Part shown: positions 6,204 to 55,602 of the stretch, piece after piece | Layout: each line of letters starts with the position of its first letter | Numbering within the stretch: the stretch's first letter is position 1 | Sequence record: OR352942.1 | Reading direction: 5' to 3' (one strand) | From: Escherichia phage AV112 | DNA: 64,000 nt | The notes under the pieces: model-generated | What the model saw: only the letters and a program-made list of their open reading frames with translations | What the model was told of the DNA's origin: nothing | The model's database searches: none | Program-made: the position numbers and the translations under genes

Positions 6204-6231
6204 TTAGATTTCCTCAATTATCCATAGGAGC

Positions 6232-6261
6232 ATTATACTCTGCTCCTGAGAGTTTGTAAAC
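6232..6261 (-). promoter_or_regulatory. T4-type early promoter
   Basis: minus-strand GTTTAC, 18 nt, TATAAT; -10 sits in loop of dyad GGAGCA...TGCTCC. Confidence 0.5.
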
Positions 6262-6485
6262 TATTTTACTAAAGATTCAATATACTCGTGAAGGGCTTTA
6301 GTCGCTACTGCCCACTTATTCTGATATTCATTTTTCAGATTAGCACGAGACTGAACTAACAAGCGGTCATTAGTCGGAGGCAAAGATTCTAATCGTTGAA
6401 TCTGTCGCCCATAAATCATAGCCGCCATTTCAGATTCATAGATAAGCCCTTTAATGTATTCATGCTGTTCTTTAGTCATTGGCAT
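6261..6485 (-). CDS. hypothetical protein (74 aa)
   Basis: small ORF. Confidence 0.45.
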   Translation of the reverse strand: MPMTKEQHEYIKGLIYESEMAAMIYGRQIQRLESLPPTNDRLLVQSRANLKNEYQNKWAVATKALHEYIESLVK

Positions 6486-14829: not shown

Positions 14830-14846
14830 TTTTATTTGATAGGACT

Positions 14847-14876
14847 ACTATAACATAGCCCTATCTTGTTGTAAAC
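14847..14876 (-). promoter_or_regulatory. T4-type early promoter
   Basis: minus-strand GTTTAC, 18 nt, TG-T-TATAGT. Confidence 0.5.
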
Positions 14877-15268
14877 TACTTTTTAAAAGTTTTTTGCAAA
14901 AGTTTGATGATTTCGTCGACGTTGGTTTCATCTACGATACAATGTATTTTTGTTACACCTAAAGTTATACCTTCGTTAGTAGGTTGAGGTTTTACTAAAT
15001 CTACCTCAGTAAAGTATTTGAACTCATCATAATAAATCTCAAAATAAGTTTCAATTTCACCACCGGCAGAACATACAGTACCGTCTTCCATAGTTACACT
15101 TACTACGTTTGGCGTATCGCCATCATAATCAGGTTCCATTCCGTTTACAACAAAACTAGGCCCGTGGAGTTCAATCAATTTTAACATCTTAGCGTTATTG
15201 TGTGGTGCTTCTTGAACAAAATCGTCTTTAAACAAAGGGTTAATGATATAAGATTTTCCGATTTCCAT
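14876..15268 (-). CDS. hypothetical protein (130 aa)
   Basis: ORF between gene 32 and frd. Confidence 0.5.
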   Translation of the reverse strand: MEIGKSYIINPLFKDDFVQEAPHNNAKMLKLIELHGPSFVVNGMEPDYDGDTPNVVSVTMEDGTVCSAGGEIETYFEIYYDEFKYFTEVDLVKPQPTNEGITLGVTKIHCIVDETNVDEIIKLLQKTFKK

Positions 15269-33891: not shown

Positions 33892-33935
33892 GCTAATTTC
33901 CTCAATTAATTAATGTTTTTGTAATCCATGAGAGC

Positions 33936-33965
33936 ATTATACTCTGCTCTCAAGAGTTTGTACAA
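33936..33965 (-). promoter_or_regulatory. T4-type early promoter for ndd
   Basis: minus-strand TTGTAC, 18 nt, TATAAT; near-identical copy of promoter at 6232..6261. Confidence 0.45.
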
Positions 33966-33967
33966 TT

Positions 33968-34168
33968 TTATTCGGTTATATCAGAACGTTCAAAAAGCTC
34001 TTCAACAGTTAAACATTCGGTGTCATCCTCAATAAAGAATCGGGTCCAACACGTTGGGGCGATGCAGTTATGAGTTTGCCCGGCTATAGAAGCTACACGA
34101 ATAAGCTGCTGACCATTATTCAGGACAAATTTTTCACCAATTTCAACATCTTTAAAAAGCTTAGCCAT
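33968..34168 (-). CDS. hypothetical protein (66 aa)
   Basis: small ORF with its own early promoter. Confidence 0.45.
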   Translation of the reverse strand: MAKLFKDVEIGEKFVLNNGQQLIRVASIAGQTHNCIAPTCWTRFFIEDDTECLTVEELFERSDITE

Positions 34169-34186: not shown

Positions 34187-34216
34187 TGATAGGACTACTA
34201 TACCATAATCCTACCT
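34187..34216 (-). promoter_or_regulatory. T4-type early promoter
   Basis: minus-strand GTTTAC, 18 nt, TATAGT. Confidence 0.5.
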
Positions 34217-34418
34217 TGATGTAAACAATTAAATTACATTAAAATATGTTAAAGCCAACCATGTTCCGGTGAACGAACATGCGATGTAAAAACCTGTATC
34301 ACAAATTGTTCTTAGTACAATAATAAGTGCATTTTTCATAAGTACCTCAATGCAATTGAAAATATTATACAAATCATAGGGATACTAAGCAACCATATTC
34401 CGATCCACATTTTAGAGC

Positions 34419-34682: not shown

Positions 34683-34708
34683 GATGTTATCCTCTTTTAG
34701 ATAGGACT

Positions 34709-34738
34709 ACTATATCATAGTCCTACTTAGTTGTAAAC
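34709..34738 (-). promoter_or_regulatory. T4-type early promoter
   Basis: minus-strand GTTTAC, 18 nt, TATAGT. Confidence 0.5.
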
Positions 34739-34750
34739 ACTTTTATGAAA

Positions 34751-42059: not shown

Positions 42060-42075
42060 AAGGGCCGAAGCCCTT
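42060..42075 (-). terminator. hairpin terminator overlapping goF-like stop
   Basis: AAGGGC-UUCG-GCCCUU then UUUUU on minus RNA. Confidence 0.5.
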
Positions 42076-42499
42076 ATTTAAATTTAATTTTCTGAAGTGC
42101 ATCAATTGCAGCCAAACGCCCTTGTTCACTTTTAACTGTAATGACCACATCGCCTGATACGATCACCGAACCATCAACAAATTCTATAGAGCCTTTTTTG
42201 AAATCGACAGCTGTATCTGGTTCCGGAACTTCTTCAAAGAATTTAAATTCTGCACCATAAATCAGAATATCACCTTGCATACTATGAATAGTTCGGCCAT
42301 AATCGCCTACGGCTTCTACAGCAATCACCGAAACGCCGTAACCAATCATCTCTTCCACAATAAAATCTTTGGACAATAAAGTAGTATGCAGATTAGTATT
42401 AAGACGTTTACCAGTCGTATTAAGCATTCTCAAGAAATTATCTTCTTGACCTTTGATAATACGATATTTCTTACCAACTTCAAAACCTTTAAAAGCCAT
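42074..42499 (-). CDS. hypothetical protein (141 aa), goF-like by position and size
   Basis: 141 aa ORF directly upstream of gene 39. Confidence 0.4.
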   Translation of the reverse strand: MAFKGFEVGKKYRIIKGQEDNFLRMLNTTGKRLNTNLHTTLLSKDFIVEEMIGYGVSVIAVEAVGDYGRTIHSMQGDILIYGAEFKFFEEVPEPDTAVDFKKGSIEFVDGSVIVSGDVVITVKSEQGRLAAIDALQKIKFK

Positions 42500-42683: not shown

Positions 42684-43112
42684 TTATTCCTTAAAATGTG
42701 CTTTCAACATTTGATACAAAGACCATGCCTGGTCGTTATTTTCGATAGTAATCGTCATCACCGGAAATTCAGACAATTCGTCAAGTTCATCAGAATCTTG
42801 CTCTTCGGACGCTTGATATGGATTTTCAACTTCATCAAAGAACTCTGCTTCATTCGTGGAGAGCCAGATAAAGTTTTCATCAAGGATATCACCACCTGTT
42901 GCGTATCCAACCGTGCCAGTAGATGTCACAATTTTAGTAGGACGTCCGAGATGGTCAACATCTAAAATTTTAAAAGGTTCCATGCCAAGACGTCGTGCAT
43001 AAATCCCATTATCAGTGTGGTCTTTAATAAACTCTTCTTGGGCACGTTTATCTATAAATTGGTACCATGAGTTAACTCGGAATTTATTAGCCATTAGTAA
43101 GTTTCCTTCCAA
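42684..43112 (-). CDS. hypothetical acidic protein (142 aa)
   Basis: ORF; acidic [10 protein letters not shown] stretch. Confidence 0.5.
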
Positions 43113-43349: not shown

Positions 43350-43379
43350 ATAGTATCATAGGCCATAGTTGTTGTACAT
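43350..43379 (-). promoter_or_regulatory. T4-type early promoter
   Basis: minus-strand TGTACA-type -35, 18 nt, TACTAT. Confidence 0.4.
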
Positions 43380-43903
43380 CATTTTAGCAAAATAAAATCA
43401 ACTTGTTCTGCCAATGAACGTCTGAACATTAATTGACAACTTCCGAGGATGAAATCAGGTGCTTCATAGACCGCGATGTAGTATCCTTTAGCTTTCAAGA
43501 GTTCAACATCCACCTGGTCATCAAACCATGCATAAACCGCGTCAACACTTTCAAATCCAAAATAGAGCCCTTTAGCCCAATCTTCACTCAATTCAAATGT
43601 TTGCTCAATTCTATAGTATCTTAAGATATTTTGTTCAAGGAGTTTGTCTTCATTTACTGTAGGACGATTAGGGACATTATAGTTGTCGCCGTGATGGTAG
43701 AAGTTACCTGAGAGTATTCCATGCTTATCAAGGAACTCCCATGTTTCTTCAGAGTTGTCGGTGCCCGTCCAACCGTATGGCGAACGAGGTTCTTTATTCC
43801 AAGAGGTTTCCCAAATTCTGACGGCTTTACCATCTTCGATAGCAATTCCTGGTAATGATTCACGTTGAGTACAAAAACTACGTTCTACGCGGTAAACTAA
43901 CAT
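43379..43903 (-). CDS. hypothetical protein (174 aa)
   Basis: ORF with GAGGAGA SD. Confidence 0.5.
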   Translation of the reverse strand: MLVYRVERSFCTQRESLPGIAIEDGKAVRIWETSWNKEPRSPYGWTGTDNSEETWEFLDKHGILSGNFYHHGDNYNVPNRPTVNEDKLLEQNILRYYRIEQTFELSEDWAKGLYFGFESVDAVYAWFDDQVDVELLKAKGYYIAVYEAPDFILGSCQLMFRRSLAEQVDFILLK

Positions 43904-43929
43904 ATTATTCTCCTCTGGTTGATATGGTT

Positions 43930-43958
43930 ATAATATCAAAACCAGAGGAGAAGTAAAC
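43930..43958 (-). promoter_or_regulatory. T4-type early promoter
   Basis: minus-strand GTTTAC, 17 nt, TATTAT. Confidence 0.45.
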
Positions 43959-43962
43959 AACT

Positions 43963-44382
43963 TTATGCAAAAGATGCTGGACAATATTTTTTGATTTGGA
44001 ACTCAGGAACTACCATGAACTGTCCAGCGAAAACGATGTTATAAAGCTTAACACCATCTTCTACCCATTGGTCCGAAATAAAACCAGCAACTTGATTCGT
44101 TGTCCATGGAGACCCGTCAGTTGCAGAAGCAATAGTAAATTCATGGTCTTTTACAACTAAAACAGACCTGCATAGTTTCCATTTGAACGCTTTTTCTTCT
44201 GATTCAATGAATTGGCTTTTAACATAACCAATGTTACCATCGGCGTCACGAACTTTAACTTCGTTACGTCCAAAAACCGGATCACTCACAGAAAGAACTT
44301 CAACCAACTTCCCGGCAACTTTAGAGCGAGAAGCAACAGATACATATACGTAATCACCTGTAGAGAGATTTACAATATTCAT
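43963..44382 (-). CDS. paralogue A of a three-member tandem family (139 aa)
   Basis: shares C-terminal GFISDQWVEDG.KLYNIVF.G.F.VV and N-terminal SRSK.AG.LVEV with 44392..44847. Confidence 0.55.
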   Translation of the reverse strand: MNIVNLSTGDYVYVSVASRSKVAGKLVEVLSVSDPVFGRNEVKVRDADGNIGYVKSQFIESEEKAFKWKLCRSVLVVKDHEFTIASATDGSPWTTNQVAGFISDQWVEDGVKLYNIVFAGQFMVVPEFQIKKYCPASFA

Positions 44383-44391
44383 AATAATTCC

Positions 44392-44847
44392 TTAAGCTTT
44401 AAGAGGAGACACATAGCGAGTGATTTCAGATTCTTTAACAACTCGGAAGTCACCTAAGAATACGATATTGTATAACTTTTCGCCATCTTCAACCCATTGG
44501 TCACTAATGAAGCCACACATAGTATCAGTTTTGCTTGGATAACCGTATTCGTCGATGTAATCAAATTCTTTATCGGTTATAAATTCAACGCCTTTGCAAA
44601 GAGCCCATTTGAACTGTACATTAGGTTCAGTAGAAGCAAAATGAGCGCTCACACGAGTTTCCAGGAATTTAGGACTTACGTAAGCGTACTGAGTATCCTG
44701 ACGTCCAAAACTAGGAATGATTCGAACTTTAACTTCTTTAATGCGTCCCATGCCATTTGTGCGAAGTCCGACAACTTCAACCAGACGACCTGCGGCTTTA
44801 GACCGGGATGCAGTTGATACACGCTTAATTTCACCAATAGTAATCAT
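44392..44847 (-). CDS. paralogue B of tandem family (about 151 aa from ATG 44847)
   Basis: same conserved termini as paralogue A. Confidence 0.55.
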   Translation of the reverse strand: MITIGEIKRVSTASRSKAAGRLVEVVGLRTNGMGRIKEVKVRIIPSFGRQDTQYAYVSPKFLETRVSAHFASTEPNVQFKWALCKGVEFITDKEFDYIDEYGYPSKTDTMCGFISDQWVEDGEKLYNIVFLGDFRVVKESEITRYVSPLKA

Positions 44848-44877
44848 AATTTTTCTCTCTTTGTTTAAGTTGAATTC

Positions 44878-44907
44878 ATTATACTCCATCCGTCCTTGGA
44901 TGTACAA
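44878..44907 (-). promoter_or_regulatory. T4-type early promoter (duplicated module)
   Basis: minus-strand TTGTAC, 18 nt, TATAAT; near-identical to 45435..45464. Confidence 0.45.
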
Positions 44908-44909
44908 CA

Positions 44910-45404
44910 TTAATTTAGAATATTAACTACTGCACTACGTGGAACCACACTAAAATCACCGGCATGAACAACGTTCAGAAGTTCAACACCGTCTTCAATC
45001 CACTGGTCAGTTACCCATCCATTTACTGGACCATCGAATGGGCGTCGAATTGAAACATATTTACACAATAAATCAGTAGGCTCAATAGGCTTAATCAGAG
45101 TACCGTACATACAAACGATATCCATATCAAAGTGGAGACCATCTTTAACAGGTGCTTCTTCAATCAACAGTTCAAAGTCAGTGCTTGGAAGGGCAGTAGT
45201 AGAAATTGTACCGTATGAATTTTTAATTTCTAAGAATAACCAAGGGCCTTCAACTTGTTTAATGAAGTTAACAATAGTGAAACTATTACCTTGAGTGGCG
45301 CCTAAAATTTCACAAAACTTTTCATAAGCTCGCACTGAAGCACCGTACCAGTTGATTTGTTTTTCGTCTTTCAGGATGTAAGTAGCCGTAGTATTGATAT
45401 TCAT
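44910..45404 (-). CDS. paralogue C of tandem family (about 165 aa from ATG 45404)
   Basis: C-terminal GWVTDQWIEDGVELLNVVHAGDFSVV matches family motif. Confidence 0.5.
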   Translation of the reverse strand: MNINTTATYILKDEKQINWYGASVRAYEKFCEILGATQGNSFTIVNFIKQVEGPWLFLEIKNSYGTISTTALPSTDFELLIEEAPVKDGLHFDMDIVCMYGTLIKPIEPTDLLCKYVSIRRPFDGPVNGWVTDQWIEDGVELLNVVHAGDFSVVPRSAVVNILN

Positions 45405-45434
45405 AATGTTTTCCCGTTTGGTTAAGATAGAAAG

Positions 45435-45464
45435 ATTATACTCCAACCATCCTTGGTTGTAAAC
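45435..45464 (-). promoter_or_regulatory. T4-type early promoter (duplicated module)
   Basis: minus-strand GTTTAC, 18 nt, TATAAT. Confidence 0.45.
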
Positions 45465-45468
45465 TGTT

Positions 45469-46146
45469 TTATCGCTGTTTTACACTTAACGGGTCAGGAT
45501 TCTCAGGGACATCTTCAAGGCCAAGCGCATAACGCTGAGCATATTTTAACATCAAAATATCTTTAGCACAATCATGAATACTATCATGGGCAACGAATCC
45601 TTTTAGCGTACCCATCGGTAATGGACACATACTTAATCCTCGTGTCAACGAGTAAGCTTCGATTGCCGTACGAATATCGCGTTGAGCCCAGAATTTAACC
45701 GGTTCTAATTTATCAGTATCAATATCTGGTTCAAGAACACCTTCATCACGATAGAGGTCACGAATCAAATCGACCAATATCGGGAAGTCAAAGCTCATAC
45801 CACGGCACCACATCTGTGATTTCCATTGGTCAACTTTATTAGCTCGGCAATAATCTAAAAAGATTTTAATGCCTTCAAGCGTAGTGACATCGTCTTCAGA
45901 CGGAGCCAAGTTTTTACGTGCTTCAGCCGATTGTTCTTTCCACCATTTCATAGTGGATTTAGCAAAAACTCGCTTCCCTTTCTGAGAAGCCAAATTAAAT
46001 TTAATTCGCTTACCTCGTTGAACAAGTTCTTCAAATGATTCAACAACTTCAGGGTCGGAATTATATGCAATAACCGCAAGGTCAATAACAGCCGCTTTTG
46101 ATGTATTGCCGAATGTTTCAAAATCTATAATAACATCAGTGCTCAT
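45469..46146 (-). CDS. dexA: exonuclease A (DnaQ-like 3'-5' exonuclease)
   Basis: DFETFG DEDD motif; start at ATG 46146 (MSTDV) with SD; about 225 aa. Confidence 0.85.
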   Translation of the reverse strand: MSTDVIIDFETFGNTSKAAVIDLAVIAYNSDPEVVESFEELVQRGKRIKFNLASQKGKRVFAKSTMKWWKEQSAEARKNLAPSEDDVTTLEGIKIFLDYCRANKVDQWKSQMWCRGMSFDFPILVDLIRDLYRDEGVLEPDIDTDKLEPVKFWAQRDIRTAIEAYSLTRGLSMCPLPMGTLKGFVAHDSIHDCAKDILMLKYAQRYALGLEDVPENPDPLSVKQR

Positions 46147-46157
46147 AATTTTCTCTC

Positions 46158-47471
46158 TCAAATAAAATGGACGTCAAACCGACCACGAGTTGTGCCGACA
46201 TACAATAACTGTTTAGCTAATTCTGAATCGGCATAATGGATACACGGTGTATAAACAAAGGCCGTGTCAACAGACATACCCTGGGCCTTATGGAAGGTCG
46301 ATACTGGTAGTGCCTTCACCTTAGTGAACATACGTTTAGCATCCCAGAATTCGCTCCATGGAGCTTTACCACCTTTATTCCAAAATTTGTATGTTTCTGC
46401 GGTCTTAGCCAAAAACAAATTGAATTTATAAAGCTCTTCTTCAGAAGAAATAACCTTTATATCTTCGCGGATGTATTCTTCGTCGTCCCCATATGTTTCT
46501 ACTGTAAGATTCCAGTATCGTATCATATATTCGCCTGAAACACCACGTGCTTTAACAAATGTAGACGTTTCTACAGCATCTCGAATACGAACGAATTGGC
46601 CGTTATTGAAAAGCATTTCGGTAATATTTTTACCATCTAGCTTATATGTCTTAGTAAATGGCTCCTGTAGAACAATGACTTCGTCTTTAATAAATGGTTT
46701 TTCTGTTTCAAGAAGTTTTCGTCGAATAATTGAATTTAACTTGTCCACTGACTTATTTGTGAATGCCATCATTCGATTTTCGAAAAGGTCTTCAGGAGTT
46801 TTAACGACGTTAAAATAGTTCATCATATACGATTTAAGGTCTGTATATCCATGAACACCGTGCCCATCAACTACTTTATCGTAAATCCATTTGCCGTTAC
46901 GAATATCAGTCGCAACATCAATAATTGGTGCGTTGCTACGTTTAACTTCTGTAAGGTTGCATTGCACGAAGTCTTTGTGAGTGAAGAAAGGACTTAGATA
47001 CGCAGTTGATTCGCCTGGGTCTACCGGACGAATCTGGCATCGGTCGCCGATTCCAATTACTGTACACCATTTAGGGATACTAGCTAACATTATTTTAAAC
47101 AGAGAACGGTCGCACATTGACGCTTCATCAAATAACAGTACACGACACAAGGCTAAGTCGGGAACCTTTTTCTGTTCAAACAATACGTTTTCTTCGTATG
47201 TAGTTGGGTTGATTTTAAGAATGCTATGAATAGTCGATGCTTCTTGACCCGCAAGTTTGCTTAGAACCTTTTTAGCAGCATGTGTAGGGGCTGCTAAAAT
47301 AATACCTGATTCTCCAGAAGAAATAAGGGCTTCAACGATGAATCTAGTAAGGGTTGTTTTACCTGTACCGGCAGGCCCATTAATAGTTACGTGATGTTTC
47401 TTTTCTTTAATAGCGTTCATAACAACGTTGAAGGCGTTTTTCTGGCCTTCGGTCAAATCATCAAATGTCAT
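46158..47471 (-). CDS. dda: Dda DNA helicase (SF1B)
   Basis: 437 aa, Walker A GPAGTGKTT, near-colinear with T4 Dda. Confidence 0.92.
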   Translation of the reverse strand: MTFDDLTEGQKNAFNVVMNAIKEKKHHVTINGPAGTGKTTLTRFIVEALISSGESGIILAAPTHAAKKVLSKLAGQEASTIHSILKINPTTYEENVLFEQKKVPDLALCRVLLFDEASMCDRSLFKIMLASIPKWCTVIGIGDRCQIRPVDPGESTAYLSPFFTHKDFVQCNLTEVKRSNAPIIDVATDIRNGKWIYDKVVDGHGVHGYTDLKSYMMNYFNVVKTPEDLFENRMMAFTNKSVDKLNSIIRRKLLETEKPFIKDEVIVLQEPFTKTYKLDGKNITEMLFNNGQFVRIRDAVETSTFVKARGVSGEYMIRYWNLTVETYGDDEEYIREDIKVISSEEELYKFNLFLAKTAETYKFWNKGGKAPWSEFWDAKRMFTKVKALPVSTFHKAQGMSVDTAFVYTPCIHYADSELAKQLLYVGTTRGRFDVHFI

Positions 47472-55290: not shown

Positions 55291-55319
55291 TTTAACTCCT
55301 TAGTTGATTTGATAGGACT

Positions 55320-55349
55320 ACTATACCATAGTCCATCTATAATGTAAAC
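55320..55349 (-). promoter_or_regulatory. T4-type early promoter for sp
   Basis: minus-strand GTTTAC, 18 nt, TATAGT. Confidence 0.5.
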
Positions 55350-55353
55350 AACT

Positions 55354-55602
55354 TTATTCTTTTTCGCGAATAATAATTACTTGTTGAGGCTGCTGGGCAG
55401 ATTTCTTTTCGGCAACGATAGACCAAATTAAAGTTCCAATCCAACCAATCATCGTCCAGTTAAAGAGTAAAGATATAAAGAAGATTGCTGTTGTGCTTTT
55501 TGTGCCACGAATAAGTGCGATTACCCAAGGCAACATGTAAATGATGATTGAACCAATACCTGCGATTAAAACTGCTACTGAACTAGCTACGAATAATTCC
55601 AT
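55354..55602 (-). CDS. small inner-membrane protein (82 aa, two TM segments)
   Basis: two hydrophobic helices; possibly immunity-type membrane protein. Confidence 0.45.
   Translation of the reverse strand: MELFVASSVAVLIAGIGSIIIYMLPWVIALIRGTKSTTAIFFISLLFNWTMIGWIGTLIWSIVAEKKSAQQPQQVIIIREKE

Follow-up and report, generated by a model that had tools for sequence, protein, structure and literature searches.

Apparently old motB-type gene duplications and a probable later promoter copy in the early region of Escherichia phage AV112

The three tandem genes at positions 43963-45404 of Escherichia phage AV112 are previously described early genes of a T4-type phage of the RB69-like group (Mosigvirus), namely motB.1, motB and a second motB. 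Their sequences indicate that the gene duplications behind this block are old, dating from before the sampled Tevenvirinae genera diverged. The near-identity of two promoters within the block would reflect a separate and later event, in which a core of ~30 nt, with similarity of up to 64 bp around it, was copied within the Mosigvirus lineage. For this explanation as a whole, which covers the identity of the block, its transcription, the shared C-terminal domain (CTD), the function of the motB product and the old duplications followed by a promoter copy, we estimate a probability of roughly 0.85. The family, its shared CTD and the RB69-type copy number are already known, having been published in 2021 (PMC7827196), and the observation is for this reason of little importance in itself. 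What is added here is that the old gene duplication can be told apart from the later promoter copy, and that the three-gene block appears to have moved between genera as one module.

The window, i.e. the whole stretch of 64,000 nt that was analysed (OR352942.1; positions count from its first letter), contains the block in a region (43700-45700) that shares 100% identity with Escherichia phage AV113 (OR352943; Tevenvirinae, Mosigvirus) and that is matched at 94-99% identity by many RB69/JS09-like phages. Every gene of this region lies on the minus strand, as do the promoters. In transcription order, dda and then dexA (45469-46161) come first, followed by the promoter P_C (45435..45464; GTTTACA, 17 nt, TATAAT) upstream of ORF C, which is motB.1 (44910..45404, ATG at 45404; 164 aa) and encodes a putative GoF/Frd.2-type beta-barrel N-terminal domain (NTD), a linker and a MotB-type CTD. 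Next comes P_B (44878..44907; TTGTACA, 17 nt, TATAAT), a near-copy of P_C, upstream of ORF B, the motB orthologue (44392..44847, ATG at 44847; 151 aa), with a basic KOW-like NTD and a C-terminal beta-barrel. ORF A, the second MotB-type gene (43963..44382, ATG at 44382; 139 aa), starts 9 nt past the stop codon of B. The third promoter of the locus, embedded in a hairpin (43920-43963), lies between A and a motB.2 homologue (43379-43903; 174 aa; phrog_1106), after which cef, a goF-like gene, 39.2, a second goF-like gene and gene 39 follow. Hence, the three-gene block is located in a non-essential early region with dexA on one side and motB.2/cef on the other, the dexA-cef position in a Tevenvirinae genome being one of the features by which MotB-family members are recognized. 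The ATG starts of A, B and C agree with the alignment to T4 MotB/MotB.1 and with most annotations of related genomes. In the AV113 GenBank record, ORF B is given a start at 44910 (172 aa), which lies upstream of the -35 element of its own promoter; the T4 MotB alignment and most related annotations support ATG 44847 (151 aa).

The original prediction regarded A, B and C as paralogues with a common C-terminal block, and this part holds up well. BLASTP aligns A and B over their full length (44% identity, E 2e-33), and confines the B-C alignment (36 aa, 44% identity, E 3e-10) and the A-C alignment (29 aa, 62% identity, E 3e-11) to the last 29-36 residues. Profile-profile comparison of MotB.1-family and MotB-family alignments, both built from database homologues, by hhalign gave a probability of 98.7% (E 2.9e-16) over 51 C-terminal columns only, so that the shared motifs are not a chance similarity. 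The three proteins also pass the gathering threshold of the Pfam family PF17613 (motB; 25 bits) with 81.4 bits for A, 131.1 bits for B and 34.6 bits for C. Here, B covers profile positions 2-160, and C only positions 82-153, with the match limited to residues 88-159 of C. The common CTD motif reads G[FWY][IV][ST]DQW[IV]E.G..L.N[IV]V. The N-terminal SRSK-AG-LVEV block that had been noticed in A and B is indeed common to both and invariant across the MotB family, for which a KOW-like NTD with the SRSKAAG..VEV motif, as present here, is a defining trait. B and C have only their last ~51-55 residues in common and differ in their NTDs (KOW-like versus a putative GoF/Frd.2-type barrel). At the DNA level, blastn detected no similarity between the coding regions of B and C, whose promoters are 83% identical.

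A search with the CTD profile against 1.84 billion representative proteins returned only 37 clusters. The full-domain matches among them are short proteins, several being T4-like phage proteins that had already been recovered, and matches to long repeat proteins span only a stretch of ~25 residues; thus, no wider family is informative for the CTD. Searches of the PDB gave nothing significant, either with the sequence of B or with the CTD profile (best E 1.7), and a fourth CTD copy, the '29-aa peptide', was sought in the 64-kb window and not found. The shared CTD and the differing NTDs of MotB and MotB.1 were reported by Son et al. (2021, PMC7827196), who considered that one gene possibly arose from duplication of the other. 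For RB69, they listed two motB genes, a single motB.1 and a peptide of 29 aa.

ORF A is a member of an orthologous group with 87-100% identity in RB69, RB68 and pSe_SNUABM_01, and is 44-53% identical to every MotB compared, its neighbour B included. Since A is well conserved among its own orthologues and equally far from all MotB proteins including B, the A/B split is apparently old. The KOW-like NTD of A carries a net charge of 0 in AV113 and of -1 in the other three A-type proteins. Neither a promoter nor a terminator was found in the 9-nt gap between B and A, and the two genes are most likely co-transcribed.

P_B and P_C are the two best sigma-70-type sites between 43000 and 46300, with P_C as the best promoter-like site of the region (11/12 consensus bases), which agrees with the expectation that the paralogues stand behind strong early-type promoters. 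Their near-identity was likewise correctly recognized: 25/30 bases are identical (14/17 within the spacer), and the similarity found by blastn reaches 64 bp at 75% identity (E 4.9e-6). Within the 64 kb, P_B and P_C are the only places at which the 22-mer CCAAGGAYGGWTGGAGTATAAT is present (0 occurrences expected), and the spacer identity of 0.82 ties for the highest value among 133 equally spaced pairs from 23 early-promoter-like sites (mean 0.37, sd 0.16). P_B is placed directly past the motB.1 stop codon, as is the T4 motB promoter, but its spacer differs. P_C is conserved in all eight Mosigvirus sequences compared and the P_B/P_C pair in seven of them; RB69 has kept the -35 element and the spacer, with TATAAA as the -10 element of P_B. 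Outside those Mosigvirus sequences, the pair was encountered in only one further IMG/VR contig, where the spacing is 557 bp, too. No terminator-like site was found between A, B and C. P_C probably gives rise to a motB.1 transcript and P_B to a transcript of motB and the second motB. Promoter sub-families with near-identical spacers are also found elsewhere on the minus strand of the window (33926-33970 and 6222-6266, with further early-promoter sub-family sites at 34699-34743, 34187-34231, 14837-14881 and 55310-55354). In some early promoters of the window, the spacer is complementary to the region just past the -10 element, e.g. TAGGACTAtgatatagTAGTCCTA (z -2.6).

The history of these promoters can be traced in the dexA-cef interval, which was compared among RB69, RB68, pSe_SNUABM_01, KIT03, T4, JS98, dhabil and one Klebsiella phage. 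In T4, RB68, KIT03 and JS98, motB.1 lacks a dedicated promoter and begins within ~10 nt of motB.2. The same spacing applies to every compared non-Mosigvirus phage that has motB.1, and the promoter after dexA belongs to motB.2 in these genomes. In Mosigvirus, motB.2 with its own promoter and hairpin is found downstream of A, and motB.1 has gained P_C; the nucleotides just before the motB.1 start (GGGAAAACATTATG) correspond to the promoter-less junction of RB68 (GGGGAAAACATCATG). A promoter right after the motB.1 stop codon is present in all these compared phages, and the spacers of the motB promoters read AACTCTTGGGACCAGAG in T4, TTTATAGAGAGCCTGT in RB68, TTTATCGAGAGCCATGT in JS98 and TCCAAGGACGGATGGAG here. 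Taken together, the differing NTDs of B and C, the promoter-less motB.1 elsewhere, the other spacers and the promoter-less A argue for old gene duplications. The promoter was probably copied while the motB.2 cassette, whose promoter drives the T4-like motB.1, stood elsewhere.

Variants of the promoter core also occur apart from motB-type genes. The sequence CCAAGGAyGGTTGGAGTATAAT precedes two adjacent genes for proteins of ~316-319 aa in one IMG/VR contig (L017, 9802-9823 and 10822-10843), which belong to phrog_2351 and phrog_1435, are of unknown function and are unrelated to the motB types. In a JS98-like contig (L018, 322-343), the same variant is situated before a phrog_2351 gene. Since it precedes unrelated genes, the promoter core behaves like a mobile unit that is independent of motB-type genes.

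Alternatively, the likeness of P_B and P_C could result from convergence on an extended T4 early-promoter consensus that was selected for strength, with no copying involved. The early promoters of the window all share GTTTAC[AT], 16-17 nt, TA..[AG]T and flanking A/T tracts, and several other promoter pairs reach a spacer identity of 0.7-0.82. However, the bases shared by P_B and P_C fall mostly into the spacer (CCAAGGAyGGwTGGAG), which is wholly different in other strong early promoters of this genome. Moreover, the exact 22-mer recurs before unrelated genes in other phage genera, for which a moving promoter module is an easier explanation than repeated convergence. Convergence is hence improbable.

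Another account is the one first put forward, i.e. that a unit of promoter plus gene was duplicated in tandem and that its copies, as genes for host takeover or anti-defence, are at present diversifying. It would explain the 25/30 identical bases of P_B and P_C and a similarity that extends through the leader (64 bp at 75%), as well as the fact that both promoter-led genes end in the same CTD, and promoter-flanked units do recur in the contig L017, in which the variant precedes each of two adjacent genes of similar size. Yet, the orthologous motB.1 is promoter-less in T4, RB68, KIT03 and JS98, the motB promoters of T4, RB68 and JS98 have other spacers, and P_B/P_C variants precede phrog_2351 and phrog_1435 genes in JS98-like phages. 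In addition, the stretch from the promoter to the CTD, i.e. the NTD, differs between B and C, whose coding DNA has no detectable similarity next to a promoter that is 83% identical. Furthermore, no promoter precedes A, which is closest to B among the paralogues and starts 9 nt past the B stop codon, and the A-B identity (49%) is about that of A with T4 MotB (53%), which argues against a recent local duplication. The 'diversifying' element fares no better. According to the method of Nei and Gojobori, applied to 7-8 Mosigvirus orthologues per gene, dN/dS amounts to 0.15 for A, 0.19 for B and 0.13 for C, with 0.07 for the CTD of C; orthologues were used here since synonymous sites of the paralogues would be saturated at 44% protein identity. 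A, B and C are thus under purifying selection among orthologues. The comparison across genera therefore largely refutes a duplicated promoter-gene cassette, which we regard as very improbable.

The function of these genes can be considered on the basis of T4 MotB. B is 52% identical to T4 MotB and 93% identical to RB69 MotB. An AlphaFold2 (AF2) model based on the family alignment (pLDDT 82.7) comprises two beta domains at residues 7-57 and 86-145, with charges of +8 (pI 11) for the NTD and -5 for the CTD. The NTD net charge ranges from +5 to +8 in seven E. coli/Salmonella-phage MotB proteins compared and is 0 in a Klebsiella-phage MotB. For T4 MotB, toxicity and a gain in fitness have been described (PMC6070864), as have tight, non-specific binding to DNA, co-purification with H-NS and an altered H-NS footprint (PMC7827196). 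Co-purification of StpA, a changed H-NS DNase I footprint, increased expression of H-NS-regulon genes and a roughly doubled burst size have also been reported (PMC6070864, PMC7827196). With T4 MotB as the best-studied member being a host-takeover protein, the proposed host-takeover type of these genes is supported.

By analogy, B most likely acts like T4 MotB early in infection. It would coat DNA non-specifically soon after infection and remodel H-NS/StpA-DNA complexes, although the transfer of this function from T4 MotB at only 52% identity is a point against the explanation as a whole. Judging from the charge split, DNA binding may reside mainly in the basic KOW-like NTD of B, and the shared, mostly acidic CTD could serve as a common partner-binding or assembly module. 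The CTD of T4 MotB has a net charge of +2, so that this charge pattern is not universal, which weakens the claim of DNA binding by the NTD alone. A and C may then be subfunctionalised relatives with the CTD module of B, instead of redundant copies.

ORF C matches phrog_2333 (E 3.9e-81) and is 54% identical to the intact 143-aa T4 MotB.1 and 79% identical to RB68 MotB.1; a Foldseek comparison with T4 P39415 gave an E value of 1.6e-9. Its AF2 model (pLDDT 78.5) has two beta domains (8-82 and 116-163), and the protein is acidic throughout. The MotB.1 NTD has been assigned, together with GoF and Frd.2, to a family with an LSm-like fold, and T4 motB.1 knockouts were without phenotype (Kim et al. 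2025, PMC12152347), the latter being another point against the explanation as a whole. A bent five-stranded antiparallel beta-sheet marks the N-terminal part of this family, and the NTD of C may have it as well. Two goF-like paralogues (42684-43112 and 42074-42499, minus strand; both phrog_622) flank gene 39.2 in the window. The one at 42074-42499 has a weak phrog_2333 match (E 2.7e-4) via its NTD, which fits the published 'LSm-like' link between GoF and MotB.1.

The motB.2 homologue (phrog_1106), which is 41-43% identical to T4 and RB68 MotB.2, is unrelated to A, B and C. It is found downstream of A here and directly after dexA in T4. Its promoter lies inside a strong hairpin (43901-43968, minus strand; -23.9 kcal/mol, z -5.95), whose 5' arm is formed by the promoter spacer and whose 3' arm includes the Shine-Dalgarno sequence GGAG. 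The T4 and JS98 motB.2 hairpins have the same architecture with other stem sequences (z -4.95 and -5.19, respectively). As predicted from this arrangement, read-through RNA would hide the motB.2 ribosome-binding site, and the RNA made from the promoter itself would not.

Two reference records of motB.1 deserve comment. In the T4 reference (NC_000866, 5292-5651), MotB.1 is annotated with 119 aa, ending in GWVTDQWIGRWR before the stop (compare 44910-45030 of the window), as one extra G (GATTGGAAG versus GATTGAAG) causes a frameshift inside the conserved motif. The full 446 bases are covered by AF158101 and NC_000866 only, and 445 bases are present in 13 other T4-named records; RB55 and RB59 also align over 445 bases. 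In MT984581, the one of these T4-named records that was inspected, the extra G is missing and MotB.1 is intact, with 143 aa. The 2025 MotB.1 study gives the size of the protein as 13.8 kDa, with no mention of a truncation (PMC12152347). The truncation of MotB.1 within a conserved motif in the T4 reference is hence a problem of annotation that is relevant to published MotB.1 experiments. In the RB69 record (NC_004928, 1947-2443), two 1-nt insertions relative to AV113, which are either a real mutation or a sequencing error, divide motB.1 into two ORFs of 132 aa and 29 aa, the latter being RB69p012. Since the 29-aa ORF is part of the split motB.1, the 'Category 3' 29-aa peptide (PMC7827196) is the tail of a broken motB.1.

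The number of CTD-bearing genes between dexA and cef was obtained with a CTD HMM scan of the fetched dexA-cef loci, as tblastn 'places per record' are unreliable as a copy count due to tandem copies that are sometimes merged. Three such genes are present in Mosigvirus, RB68 and pSe_SNUABM_01, two in T4, KIT03, JS98 and dhabil, and one in a Klebsiella phage. RB68, a Tequatrovirus, is 93-100% identical to T4 at the amino acid level at dexA, motB.2 and cef. Its three-gene block (L011, 1619-3103) is 79-91% identical to that of AV113 (43963-45404 of the window) and only 48-56% identical to T4. Being T4-like outside the block and Mosigvirus-like inside, RB68 points to an exchange of the three genes between genera as a unit. 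This transfer of the whole block favors the idea of a co-adapted module, which we consider possible, if rather unlikely: the shared CTD barrel could allow A, B and C to dock to one common partner, of host or phage origin, or to one another, and the basic-KOW, neutral-KOW and LSm-like NTDs could confer different nucleic-acid specificities. As a weaker addition, a motB.1 mini-circle could form if the 557 bp that separate the two promoter copies looped out.

Among known systems, the PeSL cassettes of T4-type phages (Arbiol 2010, PMC2839356; Comeau 2014, PMC4122927) resemble P_B and P_C in that near-identical, strong sigma-70-like early promoters are repeated in a hyperplastic region. P_B and P_C also adjoin genes of differing order between relatives and fit the T-even consensus TTTACW, N17, TAYWAT. 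In contrast to PeSLs, they come without a stem-loop or terminator part, which only the neighbouring motB.2 promoter has. Folding gave -9.4 kcal/mol (z -1.21) for the P_B region and -9.8 kcal/mol (z -0.35) for the P_C region, with no hairpin in either, and the two sites were rejected as PeSL elements on these grounds.

A further known system is T4 MotB (PF17613; PMC6070864, PMC7827196). B matches the profile over its full length, has the KOW-like SRSKAAG..VEV NTD and the DQWVEDG..LYN.VF motif of the CTD, too, and is likewise preceded by an early promoter that adjoins the motB.1 stop codon, within the dexA to cef neighbourhood. It differs in its identity of only 52%, a linker that is 11 residues shorter and a more acidic CTD (-5 versus +2). 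The A-type gene, with its shorter product (139 aa) and uncharged NTD, has no counterpart in T4. C is an orthologue of T4 MotB.1 from the GoF/MotB.1/Frd.2 LSm-like family with probably the same NTD barrel and with the MotB-type CTD, yet with an extra linker insert of ~20 residues (GLHFDMDIVCMYGTLIKP). C also has its own promoter, unlike T4 motB.1, which lies ~10 nt after motB.2 and has the motB.2 promoter as the nearest one upstream. The RB69 genes motB.1, RB69p012, motB and RB69p010 (NC_004928), to which the published description as 'two motB, one motB.1 and a 29-aa peptide' refers, have the same gene order, with 88-93% protein identity for A and B. The difference from the RB69 record lies in motB.1, which is one intact 164-aa ORF here.
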